Positions 1-48,369 are shown, numbered from the stretch's first letter. The stretch: 64,000 bases of DNA from Lophium mytilinum (GCA_010093605.1 MU004181.1:992001-1056000), one strand, 5' to 3'. Translations and numbers: made by a program. The notes: generated from the letters alone by a model not told the origin.

Positions 1-247
1 TGGAAGTGGGATCACCCGCTCAATCGATTCGCGCCATTCGCCTCGGAGAGCAGCGGCGAAGAAGTCTGAGCTCTTGACGAGAAAGGAGTCGTGGATCAGA
101 AAATCCTGAGAGCGGTTTGTAGAGCTGACTCGAACAGTGACCACGGTCGATCCTATGCTAACTTGTGTTAGTATGCACGTATTTGTTCAACTGGATTCGG
201 AGAGCTTGCCCGACTGCCTGGGAGGCGGGACGCCGGACTTCGGTCAT
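1..247 (-). CDS. BTB/POZ-domain protein, 5' part; the gene runs off the window start
   Basis: Exon 157..1 translates to IGSTVVTVRVSSTNRSQDFLIHDSFLVKSSDFFAAALRGEWRESIERVIPLP, a typical fungal BTB N-terminus (F.IH..L...S.FF.AAL.G.W.ES). It is preceded by a TACTAAC branch point and TAG acceptor. The putative exon 1 (247..210, MTEVRRPASQAV) joins in frame through a GC-AG intron at 209..158 and is less certain. Confidence 0.75.
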
Positions 248-740
248 CTTGGCTTGCAAGAGTAATAAGATGAAAATAGGAGAGACAGCAGAGTGTGGCC
301 GAAGGATCTACGAAGTAGGCTGTGATATGATGTGATATGCTGTGGTGGTGGTTGTGGTTGTGAGGAGGGATGTCCTTGCTACGGTACGAAAGATTCAGCC
401 ATTTATATATTAGCTCCCCCAAAACTTGCTTGCTGTCAGTGAATCGACCACGAATTCCCATTTTCATCGTGTGGAAAAAGACACCGAATCGGGAGGGATG
501 GAGAATCCAGAGAGAGAAGAAAGGTAGCAGCAATGAGCTGCTACTCTTCAAGCAAAGCTTAACGGAGCTAGAACAAAGATGTTGAAAGCTCGTAGCGTTA
601 GCAATAGCACTAAAGCACACATAATCCATCAACTCGGTCACATCACGCTTCCAACGCCAAAGTCTTCATCCTAAAACCCACAAAAACAACACCCACCAAA
701 AAAACAAACCCTCAACCCTCACCCCATCTATCAGAAGAGC

Positions 741-747
741 AAAAAAA
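741..747 (-). terminator. RNA polymerase III oligo-T terminator of the tRNA gene
   Basis: A7 on the plus strand is T7 on the minus strand, just 3' of the tRNA discriminator base. Confidence 0.8.
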
Positions 748-750
748 GAT

Positions 751-888
751 TACTCGGACTGAGGTTTGAACTCAGGACCTTCAGTGCAACTAATGTTACT
801 GCTTTGGTATTAGTATTGAAAACCTCGAATGCGGTTTGGAACTGGGATAACCTACGACTGACGTGATAACCAACTACACCATCCGAGC
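751..888 (-). tRNA. tRNA-Val(AAC) with a 57-nt spliceosomal-type intron (855..799) and a 7-nt canonical tRNA intron (793..787)
   Basis: The spliced 74-mer GCTCGGA TG GTGT AGTTGGTTA TCAC G TCAGT CT-AAC-AC ACTGA AGGTC CTGAG TTCAAAC CTCAG TCCGAGT A folds into a complete cloverleaf. A box (TGGTGTAGTTGG) and B box (GTTCAAAC) are intact, the discriminator is A73, and a T7 terminator lies 3 nt downstream. Confidence 0.9.
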
Positions 889-1716
889 TTAATAAGCGGT
901 ATCAAATATAATTGCAGCTATCATCTAAGAGGCTCGGGAGGTGCGAGATGATGGCGTTGGTGATGATGTGTTGGCGGTGTGAATATTGCAAGGAGGAGTG
1001 GAGTAGGAAGTGTGAGGATGCCCCGCTGACCTTTCCGCATTCGGCTGGGGAGGGGGCAGTCAAATGATTTGACTGCGAGCTGTAGCATCTAATATTAGGG
1101 GGAACGCAACGTTATGTACATAGAGCGCCCCTGTTTTGCTACTAGCATCGATCGTTCTAGGTGATAGTCATGATCCAACAAATAATACTCTTTTTCTTCG
1201 CGATTCAAGATTTTCTACGTATAATGGAACGCATGTCAATTCAATAGCATTGTGATGTCCAACTACGGTTAGAGATCTGATCCTCATAATTTTTGAACAT
1301 TTCGACTGGATGTACGGCTGTACCTTCAAAAAGTTCACAAGTCAGCATAGAGGCACGAGTTTAGCATTGAAAGCCACGAAGAAGCGTGGCGCATATTCTT
1401 TACTTATTTGTACAATAGCAGTATTAATATCCTGGGTGGAGAGCATAACCAACTCGTAAATCCATCCCGCTGTATAGCCAAAGAAATCATGTCGATGAGA
1501 ACGTAAGCATATCCAGGCGCCATCCTAACCCGAGCCCAAGAAACCTGTCCTGTGAAGCCTAAAAGAAACCCCATAGAGTGAAACAAAAAAGAGATAGATG
1601 TGAAGGGCCGGCTATGAACACTCCTAATATCACAGGTGCTGAGCGTGAAGAGGTACGTATGCTTGCACTGTATCACGCTATACCCAAAAAGAAATCGATG
1701 AACCAACTGCCGTCTC

Positions 1717-3719
1717 TTAGTTCTTTTGCACAAACTCCTCAACCCGCATCGTCTCCCCACTTGGGCGGGGCGACACATCAACGACGCTGCTGTCGGGTGT
1801 CCACGCGGTGGAGGTGCTTGGTGTGTATTCCCTGAACCCGTTCACAACTACATCACTGCTGTCCTCGGCATCCTCATACGCCGGTGGCTCAGTACTACCA
1901 GACTCAGACCGGCAATCAGCCTCAGACCGGTAGTCCGGAAGGCTACTTGTGCGGCTCGGCGGCTCCGAGCTCATCACCGGCAGTTCCGCAATCGTGAAGG
2001 CTGGGTGCGAGTTCGGCTCCATACCCATGTGGATTTGTCTCTGCAGCTGCTCATGTTGAAGCGACGACATGGCTGAGCGCCCTTCCTCCGCTTGCACTAG
2101 ACTATTTACGACGCCATGCGCAGCTCGGAATTGTCTGATCTCTTCTTGCATCGCGGCCTCGAGGATGCTTTCTTGCTCGTTAATGAGCGCTCGTTTCTCC
2201 TCATAGTCGGCGATGCGTCCAAGATCGTGATTGCGGTACCACCAGCTAGCCCATGCCTGGCGGCGGGCAGCTCGACGGTATTGGCGTGCGGTGCGGCGCT
2301 CCTCTCTTGCAGCACGGCGGTCAGTGCGGGCGCGGAGGGTACAGCACCGGCGGTGGAGGAAAGCGACGAGGGCGGTCAGACCAAGGGCGGAGGCGAGAAT
2401 GCTCAGGGCTTTGACGAGGGGAGAGTGAGGTGGGGGAGGGGGACCGTGGTGATGGCCATGGTGAGGGGGGCCGTGATGTGGTGGTGGTGGAGGCGGAGGT
2501 GGAGGTCCAGGAGGATGGCCCTCAGGTGGTGGAGGAGGCGGCGGTGTGTGGGAACAGTTCCCGTTACACACCGCGTGTATTTGCTCCGGCAGGCCGTGAG
2601 TCTGCCAAACGGCGTGGTAGGGGTCGTTAGGCCCTCCCATCGGTGGAGGGGGGTGATGTGGACGGAGTCGAATATAAATGATCTTGACAGCGCCGTGTGC
2701 CTTTCGTGCAATCGTCTTAACTATGCATGTGAGGCTGTCACACTGCTTCAGCTCCGCTTTGAGACTAGCGGCGTCGTGCCGGAGATGTTCTCTGATGCGT
2801 TGCTTCTTCTCGCGGATCTGGTCCCGAAGTACTTTGGCCTGCTGTTGAAGGTGTTTGAGCTCGGCGATCTCCTCCTCGATAGAGTGGAATTTTAGTTGGG
2901 TTTCCTCGACAGTTCCCTCAGATAGACGTAAGTGTGCCGGCGGTTCTCGCCAGGAGTCGGAGAACTTCTGGTCGCCTGCGGTAGGATCGGGGAACAGTTC
3001 AAGCCTGAGTAGCTCCGGAGGAGACAACTGCTTGAAGGAGATGGTGAAACCAGAAGACTGTGGAATCGGCCTGCCATCAATGGCTTTGATATTCACGGTG
3101 AGAACTTGAGCATTCTCAGCGTCGGTAGGTGCGTCTTTAGATTCGGGACCCTCGAGGCAGGTTGAGCCCCAGGATAGGTCCAAGTCGTGTGTGCGGAACC
3201 ATTCATTTTTCTCTAGGTCAGACACTCCCTCAAAAGAACCTTCGCCGTGGCCGTGGTCGCCGGTCCATTCCTGAGCGAGGTAACGGCCATTAAGCGTGAT
3301 GTTAGAAACGCCACAGGGTGACTCGGATGAGAATGCCTGGAAGCTGAAGGTCTAATGAGGAGAGGTAAGCTTGAGTTCAATGATACTGCTGCCTGAGGTG
3401 TAAGGTAAGCACAGAGTATACGTACGAGGGACTCGTCATCGTGGCTGTTAGGCTCTTGGCTCAGACAGCCAGGACACGGGATGCTGAATGTCGCCGTTGC
3501 TTGCGAGTCTTGCAAGTCTAGATGTTATTTGTTAGCAGCTGCCTGGACGGAGTGGATATATAAGAGCAAGGGCGCACCAAGCTCGATGGTAGGATTTGTC
3601 GCTTCTGCATTGTCAAGATTCCCATGTCCCGGTGGACCCGGCGGTGGTGGGATGGCGGCAGAAGAGACGAGAGCTGGGAGAGCCCACGCCCAGGCCAGCG
3701 ACTTCAAAGAGGGCCGCAT
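1717..3719 (-). CDS. Hypothetical single-pass membrane protein (signal peptide, coiled coil, Pro/His-rich linker, TM helix, PY-like motifs in the tail)
   Basis: Signal-peptide exon MRPSLKSLAWAWALPALVSSAA, two GT-AG introns (second at 3424..3351), then the 502-aa ORF with TM segment ALSILASALGLTALVAFL and LPDY/PPAY motifs. Confidence 0.8.
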
Positions 3720-4467
3720 GGTTGAAAAGAAAGAAGAGAAAGAGCAGAACGACTAGGAGAAGAGCAAAGACAACAGAAGCACTACGATTTGGCTTAAAAA
3801 AATCTCCAGTCCCGGCGCGAGAGTAGTGAACAGCTGTCCCAGAGATCAGATTCCAGGCACCAGCAACTCGGGGAACCCTTCGTATTATTGGCGTCGACGC
3901 GAGAAACAGTCTAAGCCTGGCTGGGTGAGGGCTGATGCACAGCCTGCGTGCCCTGCCGCGTCACCTCGATGCGCCGAGTGGGGCCTCGAAGCTCATGGAG
4001 GCTTTCGCATCTCCTGGCAAAGCTTCAATTGCATCTTAATAGCTGCGTTGATAATAGTTAAATAGTAGTGACAGTGCGACAGAGCAGCGAGCGGTACCGA
4101 AGCTTGAGGGTATGAGGTACCGTGGAAGCATTTGAAAACACCACGTTTCGCTTGCGAGAACTGTAGCTCAACGTCCAAAATCGCGGTGGTACGTACCGTC
4201 CCTCTGCCGATTGGCCTCCACATCTGCAGGGCTGCAGCCTTGTCGCGGCCTCCCAGGGTTGGATTGATTCTGTGGTGACATGGCGCCCATTGGTCGAGGC
4301 CCTATAAAGCACGTGACTCATGCCAAGCGCTAAACACGCAACCCCGCGACTTTTCCGTCACACTATCAACACTGAAGGACCTACCGAGCCCACCAAAACC
4401 CCCGCATCCGACATATACGCACCTCAGCTCCTTCTCAGCGGTTCTCGGCGCAGACGCCCTCAGCAAA

Positions 4468-4983
4468 ATGGCACGTCCCCTCCCCCTCCTGCTTCCTTCA
4501 GCTCTATTCGCAACCTCGAACATCGCAGACAGGACCCTAGCTGACCTGTATCAAGCTTCCTCTCGGCCTCCTGACAGCTGCGCAAGGCCATGCGATGCTC
4601 GTGGAGCTCAAGAATGGCGAAACCCTTAATGGCCATCTTGTTAGCTGCGACACGTGGATGAACCTGACCTTGAAGGAGGTCGTCCAGACCAGCTCGGATG
4701 GAGACAAGTTCTTCAGGATTGCTGAAGTATACGTGCGCGGAAACAATGTACGTTTGGACAACTATTGGATCCTGGAACACCCACTAACAAGCTGCAGATT
4801 AAATACATGCGCGTTTCAGACGACATTGTCGACATCGTGAAGGAACAACAGGCCAAAGACCAGGCAGCGCGTGCGGCTCGGACCGGGCAAGACCAGAGGG
4901 GTGGACATGGTGGCAGAGGCGACCGTGGACGAGGAATGGGTCGTGGCGGCCGTGGACGTGGCCGTGGCAGAGGCGGTTCGTGA
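4468..4983 (+). CDS. LSM4: U6 snRNA-associated Sm-like protein Lsm4
   Basis: ATG at 4468, GC-AG intron 4471-4555, exon 4556-4747 ([42 protein letters not shown]...YVRGNN), intron 4748-4797, then IKYMRV... ending in an RGG tail. Confidence 0.95.
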
Positions 4984-5609
4984 GAGCCGAAGACGCGGAG
5001 GAAGACCGCCCTATAACGAACGCTTAGATGCGGGAAGTACGCCATGGAGAGGAGGTATTATGGCTCTTACTGCGCCTATTGCCTGCGCTGCACAGTCGGC
5101 GAGGCTGGCGTTATTCGAAAGAGGATATTGGTTCGCAAAGAGAACCTCAATGGGATTAATTCGCGAATATGGCTAATGACCATGCGGGTCATAGTGCAAA
5201 TCACCTCGGACAATCGAACTAGGCAAACGCTGAGGATGTAAGTGAGGTACAGTGCAAGACCACGAAGTTGGTTCTCCAGTTCCTCATCAATCAAAAAAAA
5301 CTACTCTCAATCGATTAGCTGTAAAACTGTCACTTTCATCAGTTTTTCTTGCGTGAGATAATACGCACGTCGGCAGCGCCTAGAAAGGGACACTGTTCAC
5401 CGCTCGTCTATGAAATTGCTCGTACCTTCGGCCTCTGCGACTCGACTGCTCACTCCTGCTGTTACGCCGAGCGGGGTAGTACCTGCCGTAGGTAAGCTTC
5501 CGAGTCTCGTTAAACCGCGAGAAGAGACCACCTCGGTTTGCTCAGCCCAATATTTTATGATCACTGGTGATAATCCCCCAAGCTCCACCATCAAACCCAT
5601 CATCTCACT

Positions 5610-6838
5610 ATGACGGACCTCAATATCAAAAAGAGCGACCTCGTCGGCCTGAAAGGCAAAGTCGTAGTCATCACTGGTAAGCCTAATCCCGACTCGCCCA
5701 GTTTGAGTTCGGGTTTGCTCACATTCATGCTACACCACAGGTGGATCTTCCGGAATTGGACTCGCAACCGCCCAGCTTCTCCTCAGCCTCGGAGCCCAAG
5801 TAGTCGTGGGAGACACCAACGCCCCACCCGAAGCCCTGCATGCCACGTTCCTCAAGACGGACGTGAGGGTCTGGGCCGACCAGGTCGCCCTGTTCAATAA
5901 GGCCATCGAGACGCACGGCGTCATCGACCATGTCTTCGCCAATGCAGGTACGTTTTCGCTGTCCAATCACTGCAAAGTCCGCTGTGTGGGGCTGCTGTAC
6001 ACCTGTCTGCAGCCGCCTGAGGTGACCCATCAAGTTTACCGGCTGTTCAAAGTCGTCAACTTTAGCTCTTTCACTTGAGTGCCTTCAGACAGTGGCAACG
6101 AACATCATGGAATCATGCATGAGCTGTTGTTTCTATTGACTTTCCTATGCTCACACATCTCCTGCAGGCGTCGCCAAAACCACCAGCCTCATCGACGATG
6201 AACTCGACAGCAACGGCAACCTCAAAGCCCCAGACCTCATCACCTACAACGTCAACCTGATCGGCTGCATGTACACAACACGCCTGGGCGTCTTCCACCT
6301 AAAGAAGAACCCAAAGGGCGGCAGTATCGTCGTCACCGGCTCAGCCTGCAGTACGCCCACCCCCCATGCCCCATCCAATACATAGAATCCCCCCACTAAC
6401 CCACCCCCAGGCTACCAAGGCTTCAGCGTCGTAGATTACTGCACCGCCAAACACGGCGTCCTCGGTCTCGTCCGCAGCGTCAAAGCGCAGCTCCCACCCG
6501 CTCTCAACATCCGCATCAACTGCCTCGCCCCGGAATGGACCGACACGGGCCTCGTCAAGAGCACCTTCTTCCGCTCGCTCGACGTCCCGGTGCAGGGCCC
6601 CGAGGTTGTTGCGCTGTCGGCAGCGCTCTGCATGGCGGATGGCGCGCGCAACGGCCAGCTGATTCTTTCGAAGGAGGGCAAGTTCAAGGAGCTCGAGGGT
6701 GGGTATATGCCGTGGTTGGTGACGCAGACGGGCGGCGAGAGCGTGTCGATTGAGGCGGCGTTGGCGAAGCTGCAGCTGAAGATCAAGGAGGTGGCAGAGG
6801 CGCCGGATGCGGAGGCGGGCGCTGAGGGAGGCGTGTAG
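5610..6838 (+). CDS. Short-chain dehydrogenase/reductase
   Basis: [13 protein letters not shown] Rossmann motif split by intron 5677-5740, DHVFANAG, 220-nt intron 5948-6167, and catalytic YCTAKHG (YxxxK). Confidence 0.9.
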
Positions 6839-7364
6839 TTGGAGGAGGAGCTTATGGCGATGCATGACGGGAGACGTGGTGTGGTTAGGGAGTTGGGGCA
6901 TACTCATGACCTCCGGATGCTAGAGAGTGGTTCTCGAGCTGGTTGAGGGAGAGTCTTATCTTAGCTAGGGATAGCCTGACATTAAATCATGATCTTCGAG
7001 CTCTATCCACCACTTTGATTGACAGGAGTTTCAGATGGCATATGGGCCATGAAAAAGGTGGTACTCTGCCTTTTGTGTATGGTAGATGAATGGCAGTGAA
7101 AATCGGCAGTTCACGAATTCGTGTTTGACACCGCTTGAGCTTCCTCCAAGATGCTACTACTAGTCTTGGAAATAGCAGGTTTGGCAAGCCTGATAGCTCT
7201 CCAGGCCACCTTGATGGTGCTAGACTGCTGGAGTGTGCCAGATATTTTCTGCCTAGCGAGAATGGCTGTCAGAGTATGTGTCTATTTTTATACATGTAGC
7301 TTCTACAATTGTGCACTGAGTCGTATTTTACAAGCCCAGCTCGCCCACATACACGCGTCACATT

Positions 7365-8727
7365 CTACCTCCTCTTCAGATACCAATTGAAAGCGAGCTG
7401 GTTCGTATCCACCGAGAAGGGGGACGGTACTTCTGAGAAGCCAGGCCTCGCAACAGGATGCCTGAGATACACCGCCGCGCAGATATTCTGGTTGACTTCT
7501 AGATATCGTGGAATGAAGGCAAACGCAGACATGTATGGTCTAGGTCGCCAGGGTGTGGCGTAAGGCTTCCTTCCATCCTCTTTATTCCAAACAGAGCCGA
7601 TCATAATCCTCTCTTCCGCGAACTCGAAAGCTTCTTGAATGAGGCTCATGTCCTCTCCTGTGGTTTCAGCAACGGGCGCGTACTCCCTTTTAATGAGGTC
7701 GAGCTGGTCCTCAAGGGTTTCGGTCGACAGATCTGTAGCACTCTTATGGAGAGAGATGGCTCGCTTGACCTCGTTGCGGAATCGTCGAAGATTCTTTCTC
7801 AACTTCGTGTGGACGCCATCCTTCGCCGAAAGGACCTTTTTCGTTCGCCTCATCAGGATAAGTAGGCGCTTCCTCAACGCTTCGGGACTTGCGTCTGGTG
7901 CGCTTATGATCTCGGCTTGCTTGGACTCGCCATCTATACTAACTGGTCCGACCTTGGCGGCTTTGCTTACTTTGGTCTGCTTGGGACCTGTGGCATGGGC
8001 GGCCTTCAGCTTGCGGTATCTTTGGCGGGTAGCTCTCGTCCTAGTCTTCGAGGCACCCGTGGCGAACAGAACGCGTTCGGGTTCGACTTGGAACATGTCC
8101 CCAGGGTTTAGCTGGTAGCCTGGGTATATCATCTAGAAAGATGGTCAGCAACCGGTATTCATGGACTCTCACCAACAGCATTTGAGACGCACCCTCTTTC
8201 CATTGACCTTGACGTAGCCATGGACGACGAACTGCCTCGCCTGCCGCGCACTGCTTGCGAATAACGACCTCCATACAGCCATGTCGAGTCGTCTCTCTAG
8301 CGGGTAGTATGTCATCTGCATGTATGGGGTTGGCGGCCGCGCCCTCTCTGCCCTCTCCACGTCCGCACCGGAGCCTCGTCCTTCAGCTTGCTCAGAGCCG
8401 TCGTTCTGAGCTAAGTATTTGTGGTCCATGGGAACAACGGCCGGGATGTTGCGGCGGAACAGGCGCTCCCACTGCTTCTCGCGGACCTGCTCGCCATGGT
8501 ATGCGCGCGTGATGGACTTGGCCTTCCATTTCTGCTGGAAGTAGGTGCCGCGGGTTTGGGTCGATGTGGCTTCGCGGAGGCGTGAGAGGTTGTATAGGGT
8601 CCACCGACTCCAGTCCTGGCGGACTTTCTAGGAAAGAAAAGGGTCAGTTGTGTCAATTGAGCGGAAGCTGTGGGAAGCTAGAGGGTCTCACAATCTTCTT
8701 CAGACCATGGAACCTCCTCGACCGCAT
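7365..8727 (-). CDS. NAM9: Mitochondrial small-subunit ribosomal protein uS4m
   Basis: [11 protein letters not shown] start, FQQKWKAK...[14 protein letters not shown]4 motif [35 protein letters not shown], and C-terminal [23 protein letters not shown]. Confidence 0.95.
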
Positions 8728-25233: not shown

Positions 25234-28200
25234 CTACTTCTTCCTCTTACCTCCTCCTCCTCCGTCCCCCTGAGTCTTGCGCTTTTTCCCTTCCCGCCGC
25301 CAGTACTCCTCCTTTTCGCGCTTCTCGCGCTCCGCCCGCTTTTGGTCGTTCTCGGCCACCTTCTGCCGGTACGGTTCTCTCCTCTTCTCCTGCGCTGCCC
25401 TCCGCTTCTCCACCTTCTCGCTGCGGAGCGCTATGACTTGGTGCATAAGCGTCCGCGCTTTCTTCTCGTCAATCGTGGCCACCACCGCACGCTTCTGCAT
25501 GTATGTGTCCTTCTTCTGCGGCTTCATCTGCGTGGGCTGCGACTTGAATGGCAGCTCTACCGCGAGCTTCTTAGGGATCCTCAGGGGGTTGAAATGCCGG
25601 GCCTCTCGTTCGACGGGTCGATATGCCGAGTTCTTCTGCAGCGGCGTTGGTATCCCTTCTGCTGCTCGCACTTGTCCGGTGAGACGCATGCCTTTCCACC
25701 CGGTGCTTTCGCCCTCGTCTTGCGCGCTTGGAGCTTCCAGCAGGTTCATGACCGGGTTGTAGAATCGGTGTGGCTTGACAGGATACCAGGCCCGCAAGAA
25801 AACAATATCACTCATCAAAACCTTGTCCTCGAATGTAGCACGGAAGTTGCCTTCTGGTTTGCTCAACGCTCTCTTGATCTGACCCCGTATGCCCGAGACT
25901 GTGCGGATGCTGGCGCCTTCGAACTTGGCGATTTCTAGAGCTGTTTGAAACATATCCTTGATGAAGGCTGTGTTTTTGAAGATCTTGTAGGGGTGTCCGG
26001 TCAGCTTGAGCTTCTTGACGATTTCCGTGCTTTCGTCAACGTTCAGAACAACGCCAGTGGCCGCAATTCGAAATCCGGGATTCTTGTTCGAAAGAGACTG
26101 CACACAGCAGAAGCCAGTATTTGGTGCAATCAGAGGTCCGTAGAATGTACCAAAGCAATGCATGTGCTCTGGTGTGTACTTGAGCATACGATTACGCGTC
26201 CGTGAATCCGAAATGCTGTAAAGTGGCATGGTCTGAAACCTTCTCCACCCAAGAGAGAAAATAAGGGGGTCGTTGGTTTTGAGGATCTTCTTGTGCCACC
26301 TATGCCGCTTGATGCGAACTTGAACAAAGCCAAATCGCTCCTCGGTCGGCGTGAGACCTCCCACAATAATGGGGAAGCGAGGGTTGAAGTTGGCAGAAAA
26401 CTCGTACGGCACTTGCTCGAGCACAATTCGAGCGTATGTCCCCGCCTTGTGCCCCTCAACGCGTATCCGTGATGTCTCGTCCAGTTGGTCAAACTCGGCC
26501 CGGTTGATACCCAGTTGCTTTTGAATCTGAGCCTTCTGAGCATCGTACCAGTCATCTTCGCCGAATTCTTGTTCCTCCTTGCCCTGTTCCCGCCGGGCGT
26601 TCGCTTTGTCGTTGGTGAAACCCTCTCGATCTTCCTCTTCGAATCTGAGCTTTAATTCCTCCTTTCTTCGCGCATTCTTTTCACGCTCCTCTTCGATCTT
26701 CTTAGCCTCGTCGTTCCCGCTCGCAGCGGTCTTATTTGTTCCGAAAGACTCCCCAGTCTCCAGATCCTCGAACTCTCCGTCGCCTTCATCATCTTCATTG
26801 AACCCCTCAAAATCGCCGCCTTCTTCGTCATTTTCCTTTTCTCCCAACAGGTTTGAAGAAGCGAATCGTCTTCGAATTGCCTCGATGTTGTCTTCGTCGG
26901 TCCATTTCTGCTCCAGCTCTTCGTAGTTATACACGGGTATTGCGCGGTCCTCTAAATCAGCTGATTTACCCTCGCCCGGGGCTTTCTTGAAGAAATCGTC
27001 ATCCTCATCGCCACCTTCTTCCTCGTGAACTTCATCATCGGCGTCCCCTTTCCACCTTTTTAGCACTTCCGCTGGAGACAATGATTCATTGTAGAACATG
27101 CGAACAAGTTCTGTAGTCCGGTAAGGGGTCCGGTGACCGTGAAAGCTCTTCGCGTTACCAGCCAGATTTTGTTTCCATCGTAGAGCCCCATCATCGTCTT
27201 CTTCGCCTGAGATATCTGAATCATCTTCGTCTAGCTCTTGGTCCTCCACAGATGATACTGAACCCAAATCAGAATCGCTGTCGGCAAAGGCTACTTCATC
27301 GTCGTCGGCCCCGTTGGCACGTTTCTGGTCTGTTTGCTTCTTGAATGCCCGTCCCAGGCGATCGTCAGAGACTCCCTCGGTGTCCAGATAACCAGTGTCG
27401 TCCTCGTCACCGCTACCAACATCCGCATCAATCTCGTCATCGCTGCCGCTTTCGAAGCCTTCGTCCTCATCCACATCATCATGGCCATCTCTTTCGACAA
27501 TTCGTGCATGCCGTCGTGATTTCCGACCAGTGTTTCCGTCATCTGCATCTGCATCTTTGTCAAAGACCTGTCCTCCACTGAAGAGTCTCATTCCCGCGTC
27601 CGCTTCTCCCAATAGTCTTCTTCCGCCTTGCAGCCCAACCACTAGTTGTTCGCCCAAGCCTCGTTCTTCGTCTGAGTCGTCGTCGTGGTTAAAATTCGAT
27701 GTTTTGACATCGATGTAAACGGCGTCCTTGTCTACGAGTACACCACCCACATCGGACATAGGAGCGAACAGAATCTTCTGCTTCTCGCCCAGGCGCCGCC
27801 GCGTTGTCTTTCCTGTAGCTTTTGCGAAAGCCTGGTCCTGGTAGGGAGTCGGACAAGGGTCTGGTAATGCTTCGGTCGAAGAAACATTCAGATCGCCTAC
27901 ACCAGGGACATGGACCCGGGCCCCTTGAGCGGGAAAATTCGTTCCTCGGAGATATCCATATAGCGCGATAGTCCTGTCGCACTTGGGGTCCTCTTCTATC
28001 GCCGTCGGCGGAGTGATATCCAGAAATCTGTCTGCTAAGCAGTACGGATGAGCATTACGCCACACCAGAGGGCGTGGATTCTTCATGACTGAAAGAAATC
28101 TTGAAAGATTGAGGACTTCCCTGTCTGGATAGCGTCCATTAACTACTCCAGACAGGTAGAAAAGTTTTGCGCCCTGGTATAACTCGCTCCAGAACCGGTG

Positions 28201-28812
28201 TTTTAGCCGTTTCTTCTGCATCTTCAATGTGTCTTGTTTCTTGAAGAAGTCCAGATGCGTCAGAATTCCAAACACATTTCCAGGCATGCCGCTGGCCGAC
28301 AGCACGTTCAAGAACTCCATTGTCTCCATCTCGAATCCATAGTTTCCATCAATCATAAGTAGCACAATATCCACAATCTTCGCAATGTCGATCATGCTGG
28401 CAAGAGAGTCAGCGGGGCATTCTATAAATGTCAACCGTCGTCGTTTCGATGTCACAACAGTGAGAGGGCCGGTGGGCGCGGAAAGGGTCTGTTTGGTGTA
28501 TCGGCGGATTAACGATTTGATCAGGGTCGTCTTCCCAACTCCCGGCGGTCCCACTACCGCTACTATTATAGGCGGCGCCTCCTCTGGCAGCCTATCCACC
28601 AGAGGGACATGGAGTCGCTTTTCCTTGACGTCGTGGGAGCGGGCAGCCTGCTTCTGCAGTCTACCAGGGCCGGAGTATGCGAAAGCTTTTGGGTTTGGGC
28701 CTGTAGGCGGTCAGTTGGAATTTATAGAAGGCAATGGGGTGGGCTGCTTGCCTCCAGAGTGCGGCTTCTTCTCCTTTGTCTTGCGATGCGCCCTGTTGGC
28801 CTGGTCGTCCAT
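25234..28812 (-). CDS. BMS1: Ribosome biogenesis GTPase Bms1
   Basis: MDDQANRAHRKTKEKK exon, GC-AG intron 28751..28701, P-loop GPPGVGKTT, acidic linker, and C-terminal RIKRHRWHKKILKTNDPL...SGIRGQIKRA. Confidence 0.97.
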
Positions 28813-34470: not shown

Positions 34471-37400
34471 ATGCCTTCCACTACCACCCCAATGAAACGA
34501 GTCCTCACGGAGGGAGGCAAGACGAGGGGCAATATACTCGCCTCACCACGCTCCGCCAAAAAGATGAAGCTCAACGGGTCGTTCAAGGAAAGCAACGGCG
34601 CTTCTCTCAGAGCCCCGAACGGGCGCCCGGGTCTCGCGTCCAGCCAGCCGAAGAGTCAGTTCGAGGAGCAGCTTGAGAAGCTGACCCAAGAAATCAGCGG
34701 TCTCAAGGAGAACAACTCTGAGCGGGACCAACAATGGGAGCGACCTAGCTTGGGCGACTTCGACGGGAAGAAAGACAGTCTCTGCTTCCAGCAGATTGAG
34801 GCCGAAGAGGGTACCCTCAATGGGGGCAAGACCACCGTGAAGCTGTTTGGTGTCACTGAGGTGAGTGGCCTATTCCATCGAGAGTATATTAGGCGCTAAT
34901 TAGCATTGCGAACAGACAGGGCACTCAGTTCTCTTGCACGTTACCGACTTCCGCCACTACATGTACGTTGCTGCTCCAGTAGGGTTTGAACACGCCGATT
35001 GCCAGCCCTTGAAGGCATACCTCGAGACCCGGCTAGAGATACATGCGCCGGCAGTACACTCGGTCCAGCTCGTGGCAAGAGAGAACATATACGGGTATCA
35101 AGGAAACAAGCAAAGCCCTTACATCAAAATCACTGCCACCGACCCAAAATACCTCAACGGAAAGTACGGCATTCGCAATGCTTTTGAAACCGGCAATGCG
35201 AACTACAAAGGCCTGTGGAAAGGACACACGGATGGGATTTTGACATTTGACGAGATTCAATACGTTTTGCGGTTCATGATCGATTGCCATGTATGACTTC
35301 CTCCATACTTATCCCGATCAACGCTAATGACCTTAGATTGCTGGTATGTCGTGGGTCGAGGTTCCTGCGAGCAAATTCCACATGATTCCGGAAAGAGAAC
35401 GTCACTCGAACTGCCAGATCGAAGCATCTGTACACTATAAGGACCTTATAGCACATCCTATTGACGGGGAATGGGCAAAGATGGCTCCACTTCGGATCCT
35501 TTCCTTCGATATCGAATGTGCAGGCCGCAAAGGAATCTTTCCCGAGGCCGAGCACGACCAGGTCATTCAAATTGCAAATGTCGTTACCAAGTACGGATCA
35601 GATAAACCCTTCGTTCGCAACGTCTTCTCCTTAGACACTTGCAGCCAAATTGTAGCCACGCAAATATTCGAGTTCGCAAATGAGGCTCAGATGCTCTTGA
35701 AATGGAGAGACTTCTTGGAAGAGGTTGATCCTGATGTCATCATCGGGTACAACATCTCCAATTTCGACTTTCCGTATCTCCTAGACCGAGCTAAGCACTT
35801 GAAAGTAGCGAAATTCCCGTATTGGTCAAGACTCAAGAATGTTCAGTCTGTCTCTAAAGGAACGAACTTCTCCAGCAAGCAAATGGGGAACAGAGAAACG
35901 AAGGCGACCAACACAAACGGAAGACTCCAACTTGATCTCTTGCAGCTAGTCCAGAGGGATCATCAGTTGCGGAGTTACACTCTCAACTCCGTTTGCGCAC
36001 ATTTCTTGAAAGAACAGAAAGAAGACGTTCATCATACCATGATCACAGAACTATTCAATGGAGATGCCAATTCTCGTCGAAGATTAGCCGTGTACTGTCT
36101 CAAGGACGCATATCTCCCCCAGAGATTGCTGGACAAGCTTATGTGCCTAGTCAACTACACAGAAATGGCCAGAGTCACGGGAGTTCCGTTCAATTTCCTT
36201 CTGGCTCGAGGTCAGCAAATCAAATTCCTCAGTCAGTTATTCCGGAAGGCTTTAGAGCAGAATCTTGTCATCCCCAACCTCCGGAACGAATCATCGGACG
36301 ATCAGTATGAAGGAGCGACTGTCATCGAACCCACTCGTGGATACTATGACGTGCCCATTGCAACTCTCGACTTTGCTTCACTTTACCCCAGCATCATTCA
36401 GGCTCACAATCTGTGCTACACAACCCTTCTCGACAAGAACAAGGTGGAAGCACACAAATTGGTCAAAGACAAGGACTATATCCTCACTCCAAACGGTGAT
36501 ATGTTCTGCACTTCCGATGTACGCAAAGGTCTTTTGAGTCAGATTCTTGAAGAGCTACTCGGCGCACGAAAGCGAGCCAAGAGAGAGTTGGCTGTTGAAA
36601 CGGACCCATTCAAGAAAGCTGTGCTCAATGGTCGTCAACTAGCTCTGAAGATCAGCGCTAACAGTGTCTACGGTCTTACTGGTGCCACGAACGGAAAGCT
36701 TCCATGCCTGGCCATTGCTAGTAGTACCACCAGCTATGGTCGACAAATGATTGAGAAGACCAAAGACGAGGTTGAAAAGAGGTACACCATAGCTAACGGA
36801 TATACGCATGATGCCCAAGTCATCTACGGCGACACGGACTCCGTGATGGTCAAATTTGGCACGAGGGATCTAGCGGAGTCAATGAAGCTTGGCCAAGAAG
36901 CTGCAAATTACGTTTCTGATAGTTTTATCAAGCCGATCAAACTCGAGTTCGAAAAAGTGTACTTTCCTTATCTTCTGATCAACAAGAAGCGATACGCTGG
37001 TCTATACTGGACGAATCCCAACAACTGGGACAAGATGGACACCAAGGGTATCGAGACGGTCCGACGAGACAACTGCAGGCTGGTCCAAACGGTTATTGAG
37101 ACGTCTCTACGCATGATGCTTATTGAGCAAGACGTCCAGGGTGCCCAAGAGTAGGATCCCTCAAATCTAGATTCTTCAAAATGCTAACATGATTGCAGTT
37201 TTGTCAAAGAAACCATCTCCGACCTTTTACAGAATAAGGTTGATTTGTCGAACCTCGTCATTACCAAGGCCTTGTCAAAAGACAAATACGAAAACGTCCA
37301 AGCTCATGTCGAATTGGCAAAAAGGATGAAGAAGCGCGATGCTGGATCTGCACCTGCTCTAGGCGATCGTGTTGCTTATGTCATTGTCAAGGGTGCAGCT

Positions 37401-40783: not shown

Positions 40784-42739
40784 TCAAACTACTTTCACTG
40801 TGGTCTCCGGTACATCATCGAATAGGTCCACTTCAGCTTTTTCAGCCAGTTCGGGAACAGTTTGCACTAACCCAACTCTTTCAAAAGCCCCCTTTACAGT
40901 TCTTGATGGCTGCAAGACTATAGCGATGTACGCAAAACCGCTGCCAGTCCCAACCAATGCACAGAGTACTTTCAGCTGCCGACGGATGTCAAGGTCGATA
41001 TCCCAATGCACACCAATAATTGTGACGGTACCGCAGACGATAGGTGTGCGACGATTCTCCCAAACGACCAAGCCCTCCACACATCGTGTCTTCAAGGTGA
41101 TATAACCTGATTTTATAGCTCCAGTAGGGTCTACTCCAACGGGCTCACACGACGCTTCTACCAATTTAGCATGCGGAACACTGAGTCTCCAATGGTTCTC
41201 AACCCAATCTTGGATACCCGGACACTTCGGCTTGACTTGTCCACCCTGATGGGTTTCTAGGGAAGTCCATGACCATGTTGGAGCGCGATACGTCGGCGTG
41301 CGTTTCCGATACGTGCTGACCATATTATCTTCCCTAACATCGGGCCAGACTGGTCTCGGAAGCCAAATCAAAGATTCTAGTAGGTCGTCCTTCCATACTC
41401 CAGCAAGATAAATGCCTGTGCCTCTAGCCTGCATGTATTTAGCCAGTCCGGATATTGCGGGCAAGCGGTCAGAATCATATGTTATGTCTTTCCTTGAATA
41501 GATTGAAAGAAGGCTACGCCATCCACCGAATCGCTCTATGGCGTCGTCGGAATGCGCCCTCTCCCAGAAGTCCTTGTCCAAGTCGTTGATGTTCTGGTAC
41601 TCGTAATCCTCCTGCATACACTCGCACTTTTGGCCGCTTCGGCATTTCCACAGCAACTCCTTTCCTGTGAAGAAGATGCTCCGTTGCGGGAGTAGCTGCT
41701 CTTGGAATGCCCACGCGCGGGTTGAGAGTGCGGAGGGAGCCTCGTACTCTAGATAAGGACCAGGAATCAAAGTATCATGGGATGGTGATTTCCGGGCGAT
41801 TATCTTGGAAGAATGGCCATCACGATTGATGTAGTCGAAGTCCACAATTTCATCGGATTGCGCTACACTTTTGTCCCACTTCTTGCTCCATAGTCCGCCT
41901 TGACAATCGGCAGCATTGCTAGCAAACAAGACGACGGACGCGTTCTGGTATATTGATGCCATTCTCGAAGCTTCAATTTCCCAGTCAGGCCCATCATCTT
42001 GAAGAATACACAGCGAGTCAATCCAAATATACTGAATGTTGATGGCTCTACAGACGATGATCGCGTGCTGGAAGTTGATTGGTAGCGCGGTGAACGGAAT
42101 ACTGCTCTGGTGCTTCGCGACGTTGCTCTTCATAGTTTTGAGAAAAGTAGTCTTACCCCAGCAGTGGCTCAGAGCGGCATACTGGCCCTCTTCGCCGCTG
42201 GAAATATGGAGAAATGGATCATATCCTTCTGCACTCTTCTTGCCTACGTTAATAACGCGGGTAGGCAAGACTGTATTCCCTCTCTTACAAGCAGAATGAT
42301 TCTCATCACAGTCCTTCAACCACTCTGAAAGCACCGCCCTAAATCCAGTCTTTCGGGAAGCAGAGGGCGTTCTATAAGGATACAAAATGATCCAGTCTGG
42401 AGGCGACGTGTTGTACAAGTAATGCAGATGCACTTCTTGGTTTCCAATGACCCGACGGTCCTCTTTCGCGTCGCCAAGCACAAGCCGGACCATCTGATAG
42501 TGCTCTTCCAGGCGAACAAGGACGAACGATGCGTCTTCTTCTAGGGCTGGATGTAGTTGTATACAGGCTTGATATAGTATTTGGCACTTCAGACATCCCC
42601 GATCTCCAGAGATTCCAAGATTGGAGAGCGACCTTAGCGGTTCTTCGTAATCTTCGGGGCTGAAGTCGGTACTCGTTGTGTTGCAAAACACACTGCAGAA
42701 CGTGCCCCCGGACAGGAATGACTCTTTTCCTGTCATCAT
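40784..42739 (-). CDS. HET-domain heterokaryon-incompatibility protein, intronless
   Basis: LPTRVINV, YAALSHCWG, YIWIDSLCILQDD, MASIYQNA, LSTRAWAFQEQLL, DRLPAISGLA and APTWSW. Confidence 0.93.
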   Translation of the reverse strand: MMTGKESFLSGGTFCSVFCNTTSTDFSPEDYEEPLRSLSNLGISGDRGCLKCQILYQACIQLHPALEEDASFVLVRLEEHYQMVRLVLGDAKEDRRVIGNQEVHLHYLYNTSPPDWIILYPYRTPSASRKTGFRAVLSEWLKDCDENHSACKRGNTVLPTRVINVGKKSAEGYDPFLHISSGEEGQYAALSHCWGKTTFLKTMKSNVAKHQSSIPFTALPINFQHAIIVCRAINIQYIWIDSLCILQDDGPDWEIEASRMASIYQNASVVLFASNAADCQGGLWSKKWDKSVAQSDEIVDFDYINRDGHSSKIIARKSPSHDTLIPGPYLEYEAPSALSTRAWAFQEQLLPQRSIFFTGKELLWKCRSGQKCECMQEDYEYQNINDLDKDFWERAHSDDAIERFGGWRSLLSIYSRKDITYDSDRLPAISGLAKYMQARGTGIYLAGVWKDDLLESLIWLPRPVWPDVREDNMVSTYRKRTPTYRAPTWSWTSLETHQGGQVKPKCPGIQDWVENHWRLSVPHAKLVEASCEPVGVDPTGAIKSGYITLKTRCVEGLVVWENRRTPIVCGTVTIIGVHWDIDLDIRRQLKVLCALVGTGSGFAYIAIVLQPSRTVKGAFERVGLVQTVPELAEKAEVDLFDDVPETTVKVV

Positions 42740-43464: not shown

Positions 43465-46400
43465 TCATCTAGACCAGAAGACTACGGTCTTATCGAAGTC
43501 CTCGTCTATTAGTTCCTCTACAGGCCGCGTGTCCTTCGGCCTGATTTCTTGATACAGCGTCCAGCTGGTTTGGAGCTCTTCCGCCGCCTCATTTTTCCGG
43601 CCTAGAAGTCGCAAAGTCTTCGCTCGTTTGAAGTGCGCACGCGCCTTCTCTGGCTTGTAAGCCTCGCGGTCACCGTAGGCTCGTAGAGCCTGATCTAACA
43701 GAGTACTGGAAGGAGCGTCGTTGATTAGCTGAAGTGCTGTTCGTGGGAGTGTAAAAGAGGTGCTTACAGTGCTGTGTCAATCTGGTCTTTGCGAATGCAA
43801 TGTTCGGCTACTTTGATGCACTGCGACGGTGAGTGATAGTAAAAAATCTAGAGGTTAGGAGACCTACGATGTCTGCAGTCCGATGATGATTGTTTCCCAA
43901 TGTGTTTTTGTAGTGAAGCAGCGCCTTGCGATGGAATTCTAGGCTTTCTTCCATATGTCCTTGGGTTGCTTTGACATTTCCGATAGCGTGGAAGAACCTG
44001 CCAGTGCTAAGAAACATGTCAGTTTCAGCTTTATTCTTTCAGTGTCCTCTCCTGACTTACATGAAAGACTCCTTGTCGTCCATCCCAAAATGAGCCTGCC
44101 GATATGACAGTCCCTTTCAACAAATTAGCTTCTGCGCGACCGCGTGGAAACATCATGTTGCTTACCTCCGTCAAAATAATGAGAGCCCTCTCGCATCTAT
44201 TCGTCAACCAATACGCCTGGCCTAGATTGACGACTGGTAGCGATATCCACACTTGCTTGAAATTGTCCACCTTATGCATCGCAAGGATCGCGCTGCGAAA
44301 GCAATCCTCTCCTTCCTCCCACAATTCATTGATCATCTTCGCCGTCCCAAGCTGGTTCCAGGATATTCCAAGACGCCAATCGATTCCAGGTGGTCGTCCT
44401 TCAAAGTCCTGTATCATCATGGTGTTGAAAAGGCTATGATGCCTTAAAGCGTCTTTAGGACAGTTCGTTTCTGTAGCTATGCAACCCCGATTGTGGTGTA
44501 ATTCGGCCAGAACCGCATCTACCTCTTGTTCGGAAATCACGTTTCTTCCTCCGGCTCGTGGTGCTAGAACTTGCGGCATGTTGGCAGAATTTGATCGAAC
44601 TCGGGTAAGTAATGATGAGCTTGTGGCTCCAGAATCTGTGTCTGGTGAACGATGGACCAAAAATATTTGCTCGCAAAGTGGAATCTCATTGGTTTCGAAT
44701 CTTGAAAGTGGCTCGGCAAACGTGACAGTATGGGGTGTTGCAGAGGGTTGGGGTGTTGGCGACGATGCTGCCAGCGCTTTATTTCCTGTGGTCAACTCTG
44801 CCTGAATGAATGCCAGCTCGCACTGGGTGGGTTCTTCGATGTCCGTAGTGGGCTTCGGGAGCAGGCCCTTGATCGACTCGCATATGTACTGTGCAGTGTC
44901 ATAGAAGCCCTCTGCTTCAGACGAGCCACCACGTTCATGCTGATACCTGTAACGAAACGTCGTTAGAGGACCCAAGCAGCGAAAGGACAAGAGACACTTA
45001 CCAGCCAGCATCCATCAACAGCTTCGCGTATTCAAAATCTCCCGCCACATTATCCGGGTCGGGTGCGAAAGGCTTTGATAGCTCCCTAAGCCGAATGATA
45101 TGAGGGTATAGGTCTGCGCACTTCGACCAACGGGAAATACTATGTCGCCACGTGAAAGGCTGGTTCACCGTTAGCATCGTTACTACGGACTAGGTTTGGT
45201 AATTTCAAATCATACCTGGTAGGGCCAAACAGACGAAATAAGTCGAACAGCGGCGTCAAAGGTTTCCCTATATTGAGACCGACTCATACGCAGGCGTGCA
45301 ACGTCTTGCACGAGACGATGAATGAATAGAGTCTGCATCCTCGCATTTCCGCCGACAATGGAGGATTGAATGAGTTCAGTCCTTGCGACGCTATACGCTT
45401 TGATAGACTTGGGGTACTCCTTCAAGTTGACAGTATCAGCAAACGACGTTAGTATGTGCTCCGGTATGCTATCGGGATCCAGCATGGAGATCACATCTAG
45501 CAGAGCTTTTCCTTCCTTAAGATTCTCAAGCGCCCAGACAGACGCTAGGTTGTGACCATAGTTTGCCTTGGTAGTCAAACCATCCACCTGGAACTTGAAC
45601 ATTGCTTCTTTCTTTTCTCGTTCGTTGTACGCTCGGATGAAGTCTGAAAAAGTCAGGTCTGAGTTTGTGATGAAGCGGGCCATCTGGGTCAGAGCGAGCG
45701 GTAGCCCACCAAATCTTTTGGAGATGGTGATAGCATCCTCTTCGTCTTCCTTCGACGCGCCACGCTTCGTCATTTTCAAGAGGAAGCCGGCTCCGTCTTC
45801 CGGGCTAAATGGTTTGAGACCCAGAGATGCTGTCCAGGGAAGAGGATCGCGGCTTGTTATGAGGATGGAACCCGAGCCTCCTAGAGGCCAAAAGACGTTC
45901 AAGAGCTCTGGCCTATCGGCTCCATCGTAGACTAGTAACCATGACGCCAGTGGTCCTTCGTCGTTGCTATCTCTTCTGGTCTCTCTCCTATTCTTTGTGG
46001 GCTGTGCCTTCAAAGGATGAGCAAGCCACATCTTAACCCGTTCTCTAGTCAATACGTGATCCTTTGCTTCCGGCGAGTCCTGTCCAACCAAGCCGAGAGC
46101 AAGTGCAATGCTGCTGAAGTCCTCTGAAAGCTTGGACTGCTCGTCCGCGTGAACCCAGAAGACTGCATCAAATAGCCTTTTGTTATTACAAACAAACTCG
46201 GTCGCGAGCTGAGATTTGCCCATGCCGCCGGCTCCGGTAATCGCAAATGTTTTGAGCAAGGAGTACTCTTCGGGACCCTCCTCAGGTCTCGAAGCACACA
46301 GAGCGTTCTCTATTTCTGTCAACTCTTTTGTGCGGCCAAAGAAAGATCGATTGCGGCCGAAGGGCATCAAGTGGCAAGGGAACCGAACTTCGGATCGATC

Positions 46401-48369
46401 GGTGCTTGCGTCAGACATGTAGAACACTTGAACAAAAGCTTGTAGGCGTTTGTCGTTATCGTGTCCTTCGTACTCAACTTTAGGGATGAAGCCCCATTCG
46501 AGACTCTTTTCACCCTCTACTTGCGCCAAATCAGACTCATCGTCGGGGGTCAAGTTAGGGCCTTCGTCCTCAAAATCAAGGGGTGACTGGTCATCATCAT
46601 GGTCGATAGTGCTACCTCTGCCGTTACGAGATGCAGTGCGTACACTGGAAGCGTCGTCCTCGACGTCTTCGGACCAGGGGAGAGACCGAACCGCGACTTC
46701 TTGGAGGTGAGCGGCTAAATGGTTTGCCACAAAGGTGGATGCTGCTTTGCTTTTTCGCTGTCGGGTAGTATAGTCCGAGTCATGTGGCGACTCAAGGCCT
46801 TCTAAGAGCTCCTTCGGGGGCTCTAAGCCGCAGAGAGGACATGCCAAAAAGATGTTTTGTGAAGGTCTTGCGTTCATATGCCTGAGTTGGGAGACTTGGA
46901 CATCTGTAAATGTACCTGGATGGTCCAGGTTCATATGATCGACGAAATCAGTCTCAGCTTCGAATACCTCGGGAGATTTTCCATGCATAGTGCAGTGCCA
47001 CTGTCTTGCGTGCTCCCATTCCATATGAGAGATCCATGATTCACGGTTTGAGAATAGGTGGTCGGCCCGGGAACAATTATCGAATACGCAGACGTAGCAT
47101 TCTAAGTCCTGGAGAACGTGAACCCTCCACCGAGTCGGTGTTGATTCCTTCACAGGAAGAATCATACAACAATACGGACATTCAAATTCTTTGCTCGAAG
47201 GCAATAGCTTTGGCGGAGGTGGGACTTGGACTGCATCTGTATGGGGACCAGCAAACACAGTAGATGGCGCTTTTGTTGATGGTGCGAGAACGGAGTCGGC
47301 TCTGAACGCACGAGGGAATGCAGATGCCGTGGTACCAGAGATGGTACTACGGTCCGGCTTTACAGTCAGTTTCGAGACTGTTGAAGACGCAGGCTGGGCC
47401 GCTGGAACCAAAGTGTTTCGTGAGACCTGACTTGCACCCCATAAAGGTATTATTTTCGAAACGGTAGGAGTTAAGCCTTTGCTACCAAGTTTGCTCTGGT
47501 GTCTCCGGCGGAAGATGAAACGGCGCCTGCGCAAAAGCATGGCTTTGCTTATCCTGTCAAGTAATGCAGCATCCGCGTCTGGGAAACGATGCTTGACGAA
47601 ACTACGAGCGAAAAGCCCGAAATTTGGACTGAAGTCATTTCCTGCTTCATCTTTGATCACTCTGATATCGGCCTTAAGATTCTGCGTGGCTTGGGATGGT
47701 TTACGGATAGCCTAAGCGATCAAAATCAGAACTGTTTAAGATGAGATCGAACGGAGCGCATACCGTAGTGAACCTGAAGAGCCTGTCCACGACTTGCTCT
47801 ACGGAACGTAGTCGCTCTTCAAAAGGGGGTAGGGTCTCTGACTTGGTGTCGCTTTCCGAGTCCAGATCAGACGCGGAGGCAGAATAGTAAGACTGCGGTG
47901 CAGCAGAAGATACAGAATGACTTGAGACGGAAGTGGTATCATCGAAATATCCTGAAGCTTCCGCAGGATCTTCTTCGTGGTCATCGCTGGCTCCATAAGC
48001 GCTTTGGTGGATGTAAGTTGCTACTCTTCTTGTTAGTTGGACGTAAGATATTAGTGTCGTGGAGACTAAAAGTAGAGGTGTCCTGTATCATCACGTACCC
48101 CTTTGAAGGTGATCTTGCAGCCCATCGAGAAGACCTTTGACAAGAAGTTTTGGCTGATGCTCTTCGCGGAGCCGATGATCTAGCGATGCATGGCCCGCTG
48201 CGAATACTCCGATGTTTCCGGCCCAGATATTGAAGCGGCCGTGCTGGTCATCCAAGGCTGAAATCAACGCAGCCTTCTCATGTGGTGCATCTTCAGATAA
48301 CAGTGTCTTCAAGCGATTGAAAAGGACTACACAAGCCGAAGCCTGTGTTTCTAATGTCCTCTTATCCAT
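43465..48369 (-). CDS. Fungal NLR-like STAND protein: N-terminal helical domain, C2H2-type zinc fingers, NB-ARC, TPR repeats
   Basis: RFNIWAGNIG...SLDHRLR N-terminus; FECPYC...WRVHVLQDLECYVC...HMEWEH zinc fingers; RNRSFFGR; Walker A GAGGMGKS; Walker B LLVYDGAD; LITSRD; GGLPLALTQ; TPR-like HNRGCIA and ISWNQLG; ends FDKTVVFWSR*. Confidence 0.88.

Follow-up and report, generated by a model that had tools for sequence, protein, structure and literature searches.

Introns of tRNA genes are described as endonuclease substrates at position 37/38. A gene in a 64-kb stretch of Lophium mytilinum DNA (the whole stretch analyzed is referred to as the window henceforth) raises the question of whether a tRNA can depend on the spliceosome as well, and in which order two splicing machines would then act on it. 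In one account, the three types of nuclear intron are commonly presented as unrelated, and each is assigned substrates of its own (PMC12530127). A reading of the sequence alone (the original prediction) had proposed that, in this gene, a spliceosomal-type intron and a very short tRNA-type intron flank a micro-exon carrying the anticodon, and that the spliceosome has to act first. Here, we evaluate this proposal using RNA data, structure prediction, and related loci.

Results

Layout of the tRNA-Val gene

The segment 751..888 on the minus strand is a tRNA-Val(AAC) body of 138 nt with two interruptions, 57 nt at 32/33 and 7 nt at 37/38; 74 nt are left after removing both. All features of the gene given below are on the minus strand. 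The 5' exon (856..888) holds tRNA nucleotides 1–32, namely the 5' strand of the acceptor stem, the D arm, the 5' strand of the anticodon stem, and C32. It is followed by a 57-nt GT..AG intron between nucleotides 32 and 33 (799..855), a 5-nt micro-exon, TAACA, with U33, the anticodon A34-A35-C36, and A37 (794..798), and a 7-nt insert, TTAGTTG, at 37/38, which is a putative tRNA-type intron (787..793). The 3' exon (751..786) comprises nucleotides 38–73, with C38, the 3' strand of the anticodon stem, the variable loop AGGTC, the T arm, the 3' strand of the acceptor stem, and A73. G1, C32, C38, and A73 were located at 888, 856, 786, and 751, respectively, and the coordinates of the original prediction proved exact on this strand. 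The exons and the insert were delimited from the sequence, the micro-exon also by comparison with relatives, and the 57-nt intron by its splice signals and by an exact skip in an RNA contig.

After both pieces were removed in silico, 20 of the 21 stem pairs were standard, and the molecule showed the canonical T-loop TTCAAAC, the discriminator A73, and the anticodon loop CTAACAC with U33. G1-U72 is a wobble pair, and a U13-U22 mismatch is common to this gene and the four related loci described below (5/5). The D arm and the variable loop are, we assume, typical of eukaryotic tRNA-Val, in agreement with the Val call made by ARAGORN for one of these relatives, L002. Compared by inspection with the general A-box and B-box consensus, the gene contains TGGTGTAGTTGG and GAGTTCAAACC as its A and B box, spaced 64 nt wider than in an uninterrupted gene. 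A run of seven T residues (741..747), resembling a Pol III terminator, lies 3 nt past the discriminator, and TATATTT (904..910), located 16–22 nt upstream of tRNA +1, is a possible upstream promoter element.

Default ARAGORN reported no gene in the whole 64-kb window, and an Rfam cmscan of 650..1000 at E ≤ 10 returned two chance-level matches and no tRNA. When introns were allowed, ARAGORN found the body c[751,888] and labelled it 'Gly(acc)', as the single intron available to the program cannot model this gene. Excision of both pieces in silico gave tRNA-Val(aac) with a score of 114.5 and the loop CTAACAC. With the 57 nt alone excised, the program called Asn(att) and put a 7-nt intron elsewhere. 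By reading, only the 37/38 placement of the insert yields both the loop CTAACAC and Val(aac); other registers give G37 or A33.

Excision of the 57-nt intron from the leader of a BTB mRNA

The RNA evidence consisted of one assembled contig from one public run (X1), which carries the tentative label 'RNA?' and was mapped on window positions 1..8000. Depth in this region exceeded 2000 at its highest and was 0 in two intergenic bins. We take X1 to be a transcriptome because of these zero-depth intergenic bins and of eight intron-like joints in addition to the one at the tRNA gene. The contig, 1597 nt long at a depth of 92.3, matched the window with 0 mismatches and 0 gaps and joined 798 to 856, skipping exactly 57 nt with CT..AC ends on the plus strand. 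Its segments were 856..970, 210..798 (unbroken), 1..157, and 736 nt past the start of the window. The mean depth of bin 802..1068 was 39.8, which equals the contribution of the contig's 115 nt alone; therefore, no X1 contig retains the 57-nt intron.

This contig is the mRNA of a BTB/POZ-domain gene with the entire tRNA in its leader. It is composed of a 666-nt leader, 714 nt of coding sequence, and a trailer of about 217 nt. The leader corresponds to 248..970 once the 57 nt are removed, and the BTB gene starts in 1..247 with its first ATG at 247, as judged from the reading frame. The first coding intron of the gene (158..209) is a 52-nt GC..AG intron (GCAAGC...ACTAAC...TAG) seen as the X1 joint 157->210. 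The transcript begins at least 82 nt upstream of the tRNA, passes the T7 run, and continues into the BTB gene. The 52-aa second-exon part of the frame was 100% identical to a 236-aa protein, P0002, carrying PF00651 (BTB/POZ), and the BTB protein shares 82% identity with a BTB protein of Mytilinidion resinicola. The BTB label derives from precomputed PF00651 assignments on P0002 and P0003; a Pfam search with the 52-aa fragment alone gave no match. The splice is thus seen in the leader of a Pol II-type mRNA rather than in a Pol III pre-tRNA, a setting that the original prediction had not foreseen.

The intron opens with the 5' splice site GTAGGT and closes with CAG; its branch sequence, TACTAAT, occupies 815..809 and places the branch A 11 nt before the 3' end. 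These signals match those of the neighbouring introns supported by X1, which have GTACGT or GTGCGC at their 5' sites and CTAAC. A GTRRGK 5' site, CTAAY at 9–12 nt before the 3' end, and YAG were present in the window gene and in each of its four relatives. In a bulge-helix-bulge, two 3-nt bulges with the cut sites are separated by a 4-bp helix. A script that searched four registers around 32/33 found none of the five loci able to form a 4-bp central helix, and in the window gene at most one of the four central pairs could form; a bulge-helix-bulge reading of the 57 nt was dropped on this ground. A T4 run within the intron might weaken transcription by Pol III.

Given these splice signals, the excision from an mRNA-like RNA, and the fact that the 7 nt were kept there, the spliceosome is the only reasonable reading for the 57 nt. 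We therefore consider it almost certain that this intron is real and removed in vivo, and the predicted spliceosomal-type intron at 32/33 is borne out. Neither the intron nor the tRNA unit had a further copy in the 64-kb window.

Across positions 1..8000, X1 gave nine joints in total, of which seven were GT..AG, one was GC..AG, and one was odd (GG..AA). The odd joint skips 85 nt at 4470–4554, where neither strand offers a GT..AG reading; a non-canonical intron, a difference between strains, or an artefact of assembly could account for it. At 7169–7211, several X1 contigs break with different loose ends on both sides, which suggests a repeat boundary or alternative transcript forms. Large open reading frames at 25234–28599, 35346–37154, 40784–42739, 45210–47660, and 59044–61047 contain, respectively, a Bms1/Tsr1 ribosome-biogenesis GTPase, a family B DNA polymerase, a HET domain, NB-ARC with DUF7779, and an F-box domain. 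The gene content of the window is typical of a filamentous ascomycete.

The 7-nt insert and the order of splicing

The 7 nt were retained in the X1 contig. The intermediate that the original prediction had called for, with the 57 nt out and the 7 nt in, is accordingly the sole RNA form seen, and the RNA concerned is mRNA-like, where products of the endonuclease would not be expected. The X1 contigs included neither a form without the 7 nt, nor a free 81-nt intermediate, nor a mature tRNA; such contigs drop rare and small RNAs and are hence uninformative on mature tRNA.

In the minimum-energy fold of the 81-nt RNA, from which the 57 nt had been removed in silico, a cloverleaf was obtained whose anticodon stem is extended by a UAAC/GUUG helix closed by the loop AUUA, with C32 and C38 unpaired opposite each other. 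The original prediction had held that TTAG of the insert pairs with C32–A35, a sequence that exists only after the first splice. This pairing was rejected: it would leave a hairpin loop of 2 nt, and the folds pair U33–C36 with GUUG instead. The UAAC/GUUG hairpin lies wholly within the micro-exon and the insert, and the unspliced 138-nt RNA already folds with it; therefore, it does not depend on the first splice. The argument for ordered splicing from TTAG pairing thus fails. The order itself, with the spliceosome first, fits the only RNA form seen and would follow from geometry, because the first splice creates the anticodon loop and the stem geometry, and no anticodon loop exists before it. 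A regulatory or quality-control point, as the original prediction suggested for this order, would be a further possibility.

In yeast, nucleotide 32 must pair with the third-last base of the intron (the anticodon-intron pair). At the 3' cut site of the 7-nt insert, the fold contained no 3-nt bulge, and C32, which faces a U at the third-last insert base, stays unpaired. By our own estimate, pairing with the anticodon of the kind observed would arise in roughly 2% of random 7-mers. We place the probability that the window copy, with its extra 7 nt, makes a working tRNA a little under one half, and this copy may have become disabled recently within a family that works.

Related loci in other filamentous ascomycetes

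Metagenome contigs were scanned once with a fixed pattern consisting of part of the Val D arm, Y-GT at 32/33, AG-TNACA, and the variable loop. The scan could detect only 32/33 introns in Val-like genes, so the common 32/33 position is partly imposed by the pattern; as to signals, only GT and AG were specified, and the extended 5' site, the branch site, and the T-run were free to vary. Six loci were returned, and four of them (L001, L002, L004, and L005) are tRNA-Val-like genes with a GT..AG intron at 32/33. The other two, L003 and L006, were rejected as family members, as neither has a tRNA body. L003 is a bacterial coding sequence, and this same sequence, again with no tRNA body, was the sole match to the pattern in prokaryote genomes totalling 596 billion bases.

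L001 and L005, with introns of 56 and 58 nt, have a body like that of the window gene with a compensated acceptor pair and a shortened T-loop. L002 (intron of 50 nt) has a different Val-AAC body and no second insert. L004 (intron of 49 nt) has a Val-CAC body, a TCACA micro-exon, and a 16-nt insert at 37/38. TAACA directly follows the intron in the other four of the five loci, and a T-run follows the gene in all five. Standard stem pairs numbered 20 of 21 in each locus, and the window gene, L002, and L004 had canonical T-loops. A second insert at 37/38 is thus present in two of the five loci; the closest relatives of the window gene (L001, L005, and L002) have none. In the 16-nt insert of L004, GUGA pairs with the anticodon, and the minimum-energy fold of L004 minus its 32/33 intron is likewise a cloverleaf with an anticodon-insert helix. 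Its sequence also permits a U32-A pair at the place where C32 faces U in the window gene. The layout proposed originally, with the anticodon on a 5-nt piece ahead of a short 37/38 insert, was therefore not only confirmed by the coordinates in the window but found again in L004.

Comparison of the window gene with L001 showed identity at 67 of 74 exon positions and at 41 of 64 intron columns (Fisher p = 1.9e-4); with the L005 intron, 40 of 65 columns were identical. As the exons are better kept than the alignable intron, they have been constrained since the intron was already in place. The 5' exon differs from that of L001 and L005 at a single site (32 of 33 nt identical), G5 to A5, and the acceptor pair G5-C68 is replaced by A5-U68, a compensated change. 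L001 and L005 have identical exons and different introns. Their T-loop is 5 nt long, ARAGORN did not recognise them as tRNA, and this branch may not decode. For the family as a whole, we think it probable that a working tRNA is made.

The tRNA-like genes of L001 and L005 form the head of a block of 640–660 bp (L001:2964-3581 and L005:2964-3602) that is about 90% identical between the two loci, the head with its intron being followed by about 470 non-coding nt. The flanks of the block are unrelated, AT-rich, and nearly free of open reading frames. The block could represent either a SINE-like repeat or a transcript unit that is conserved and non-coding. A conserved open reading frame within it was considered and dropped, as a 14-nt indel, identified by eye, breaks the frame.

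A protein disulfide isomerase encoded next to L004 is 74–80% identical to Chaetothyriales proteins, a HET protein next to L002 is 78% identical to a protein of Bisporella (Helotiales), and the HET, NB-ARC, and BTB genes neighbouring the window gene point to Dothideomycetes. This suggests that the loci fall in three classes of filamentous ascomycetes, each placement being drawn from single neighbouring proteins. In blastn and tblastx comparisons of window positions 1..5000 with all loci, the tRNA itself was the only match, and the flanks were not syntenic. The loci are homologous genes, with no orthologous placement implied.

Intron-aware ARAGORN called the window gene Gly and L004 Phe, missed L001 and L005, and was correct for L002 alone; two of the three detected genes were mis-typed and two of the five loci were missed. 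In fungal genomes, many genes of this kind may have been overlooked or given the wrong label.

The spliced Val(AAC) loop of the window gene (794–798 with 856) reads CUAAC, which is the branch-site consensus of the local introns; the same is true of L001, L005, and L002, and not of L004. As a speculation, the intron may have entered by reverse splicing, with the CUAAC loop luring the U2 snRNP.

Discussion

Proposed pathway and alternatives

The reading that we favour, at somewhat better than an even chance, is that a U2-type spliceosomal intron separates C32 from U33 in a tRNA-Val(AAC) gene, one of a filamentous-ascomycete family with such introns. The spliceosome would first remove the 57 nt, so that the transcript holds an 81-nt tRNA-shaped unit with UAAC paired to GUUG of the insert; this unit would be released by RNase P and RNase Z, and tRNA-Val would be obtained once the tRNA splicing endonuclease and ligase had taken out the 7 nt. 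Either the observed Pol II read-through transcript or a Pol III transcript that is spliced in the manner of fission-yeast U6 could serve as substrate. A wider proposal, which we advance tentatively, is that an old tRNA-Val lineage in Dothideomycetes, Eurotiomycetes, and Leotiomycetes needs the spliceosome to form its anticodon loop, and that some members need spliceosome and tRNA endonuclease in obligatory order around the 5-nt anticodon exon. If so, the availability of a valine tRNA would depend on the capacity for mRNA splicing and, at this locus at least, on transcription by Pol II.

The observation of a long Pol II-type transcript alone, with the 7 nt kept in it, would also be expected if the window copy were a disabled tRNA gene, in which the intron is real but serves the BTB mRNA alone, as an intron of its 5' leader, and the 7 nt are not removable; other members of the family may still work. 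We regard this as unlikely. It is in keeping with an insert that is unique among the closest relatives and shows no bulged 3' cut site in the fold, and with the defective T-loop already found in L001 and L005. tRNA-Val genes are normally multi-copy, in which case one loss costs little. However, the stems, the T-loop, the discriminator, the T-run, and the upstream TATA-like element are all intact, the GUUG of the insert pairs with U33–C36 as real tRNA introns do with the anticodon, a match seldom produced by chance, and L004 combines a second 37/38 insert and a 32/33 intron in an otherwise normal Val-CAC body. The same mRNA leader, together with the L001/L005 block, with its unrelated, AT-rich, ORF-poor flanks and its 5-nt T-loop amid perfectly conserved exons, could alternatively mean that the tRNA-shaped unit does not decode. 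Its role would then be structural, as a module of Pol II transcripts, or it would belong to a SINE-like mobile element; it could be an RNase P/Z site controlling the downstream mRNA, with the intron kept so that folding follows splicing. This seems improbable, as no canonical tRNA feature, anticodon loop and discriminator A included, is missing from the window gene, L002, and L004, the window bears no similarity to the L001/L005 block outside the tRNA, and the unit occurs once in the 64-kb window.

Two further readings dispense with the spliceosome. A single canonical intron of 69 nt, cut after the sixth loop base, would give G33 and the anticodon UAG on the Val body, and ARAGORN does accept this form when excised in silico, as Leu(tag) with G33 and a score of 109.2; this in-silico form corresponds to the aberrant product that the original prediction expected if the endonuclease acted first. 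The score of 109.2 is below the 114.5 of the Val form. U33 is nearly universal in tRNAs, and a Leu anticodon on a class-I Val body is unexpected. Moreover, a 69-nt intron explains neither the exact 57-nt splice nor the TAACA that follows the intron in four of the five loci, and we give this reading almost no weight. That both interruptions are instead bulge-helix-bulge introns cut by the endonuclease in a fixed order, as in Cyanidioschyzon merolae or archaea, is scarcely more credible: C. merolae does have nuclear tRNA genes whose ectopic and multiple introns are removed in order (PMC3728597), but the five loci share spliceosomal signals in place of a central helix at 32/33, and the 57 nt leave an mRNA-like transcript while the 7 nt stay.

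Comparison with known systems

If the favoured two-machine pathway is correct, one 74-nt RNA depends on two splicing machines. A true spliceosomal intron in a tRNA gene would extend to tRNA the list of host genes formed by U6, U1, U2, U5, and rRNA, and it would then have to be asked which RNAs supply tRNA maturation, Pol III transcripts or Pol II read-through transcripts. Intron gain by reverse splicing, like ordered processing, could also be tested directly in this family. A literature search, with most subscription journals outside its range, turned up neither a paper describing a tRNA gene with a spliceosomal intron nor a minimum length for fungal tRNA introns.

Among fungal genes known to carry spliceosomal introns are the Pol III gene U6 and the U1, U2, U5, and rRNA genes, and tRNA is unlisted in the available text of that source (PMC5855946). 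The U6 introns of fission yeast and many fungi, like those of U1, U2, U5, and rRNA, resemble the 57-nt intron in combining GT..AG ends and a branch site within a small, structured, Pol III-like non-coding gene, and, as far as that text goes, they too occur in several lineages with intron sequences unconserved between distant ones (PMC5855946). Here, by contrast, the host is a tRNA, and the rationale offered for snRNAs, their proximity to the spliceosome's active site, is not obviously applicable; the splice is seen in a Pol II-type mRNA leader, and in two of the five loci a tRNA-type insert lies 5 nt further on. Introner-like elements, which are multi-copy in Dothideomycetes, were also compared, and no second copy of the intron was found within the 64-kb window.

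The second interruption can be compared with canonical tRNA introns. The 7-nt insert of the window gene and the 16-nt insert of L004 share their 37/38 position with these introns, and both contain bases complementary to the anticodon. In contrast to them, the fold of the window insert has no bulged 3' site, and its 7 nt fall below the 11–69 bp given for the endonuclease introns of C. merolae in the available part of PMC3728597. The multi-intron tRNAs of C. merolae and archaea likewise carry more than one interruption, one of them non-canonical in the anticodon region, and a fixed order is expected, on the evidence of the same partial text (PMC3728597). Those introns, however, are bulge-helix-bulge structures that are all cut by the endonuclease, whereas the 32/33 intron of the window gene has no such motif, carries spliceosomal signals, and is removed from an mRNA-like transcript. 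The stwintrons of Pezizomycotina, the same fungal group, provide a parallel for the order of events, in that the second excision follows only after the first, as described in the available part of PMC5639578. In stwintrons both steps are spliceosomal and take place in mRNAs; in the tRNA-Val gene described here, the second step would putatively be carried out by another machine, on a tRNA.
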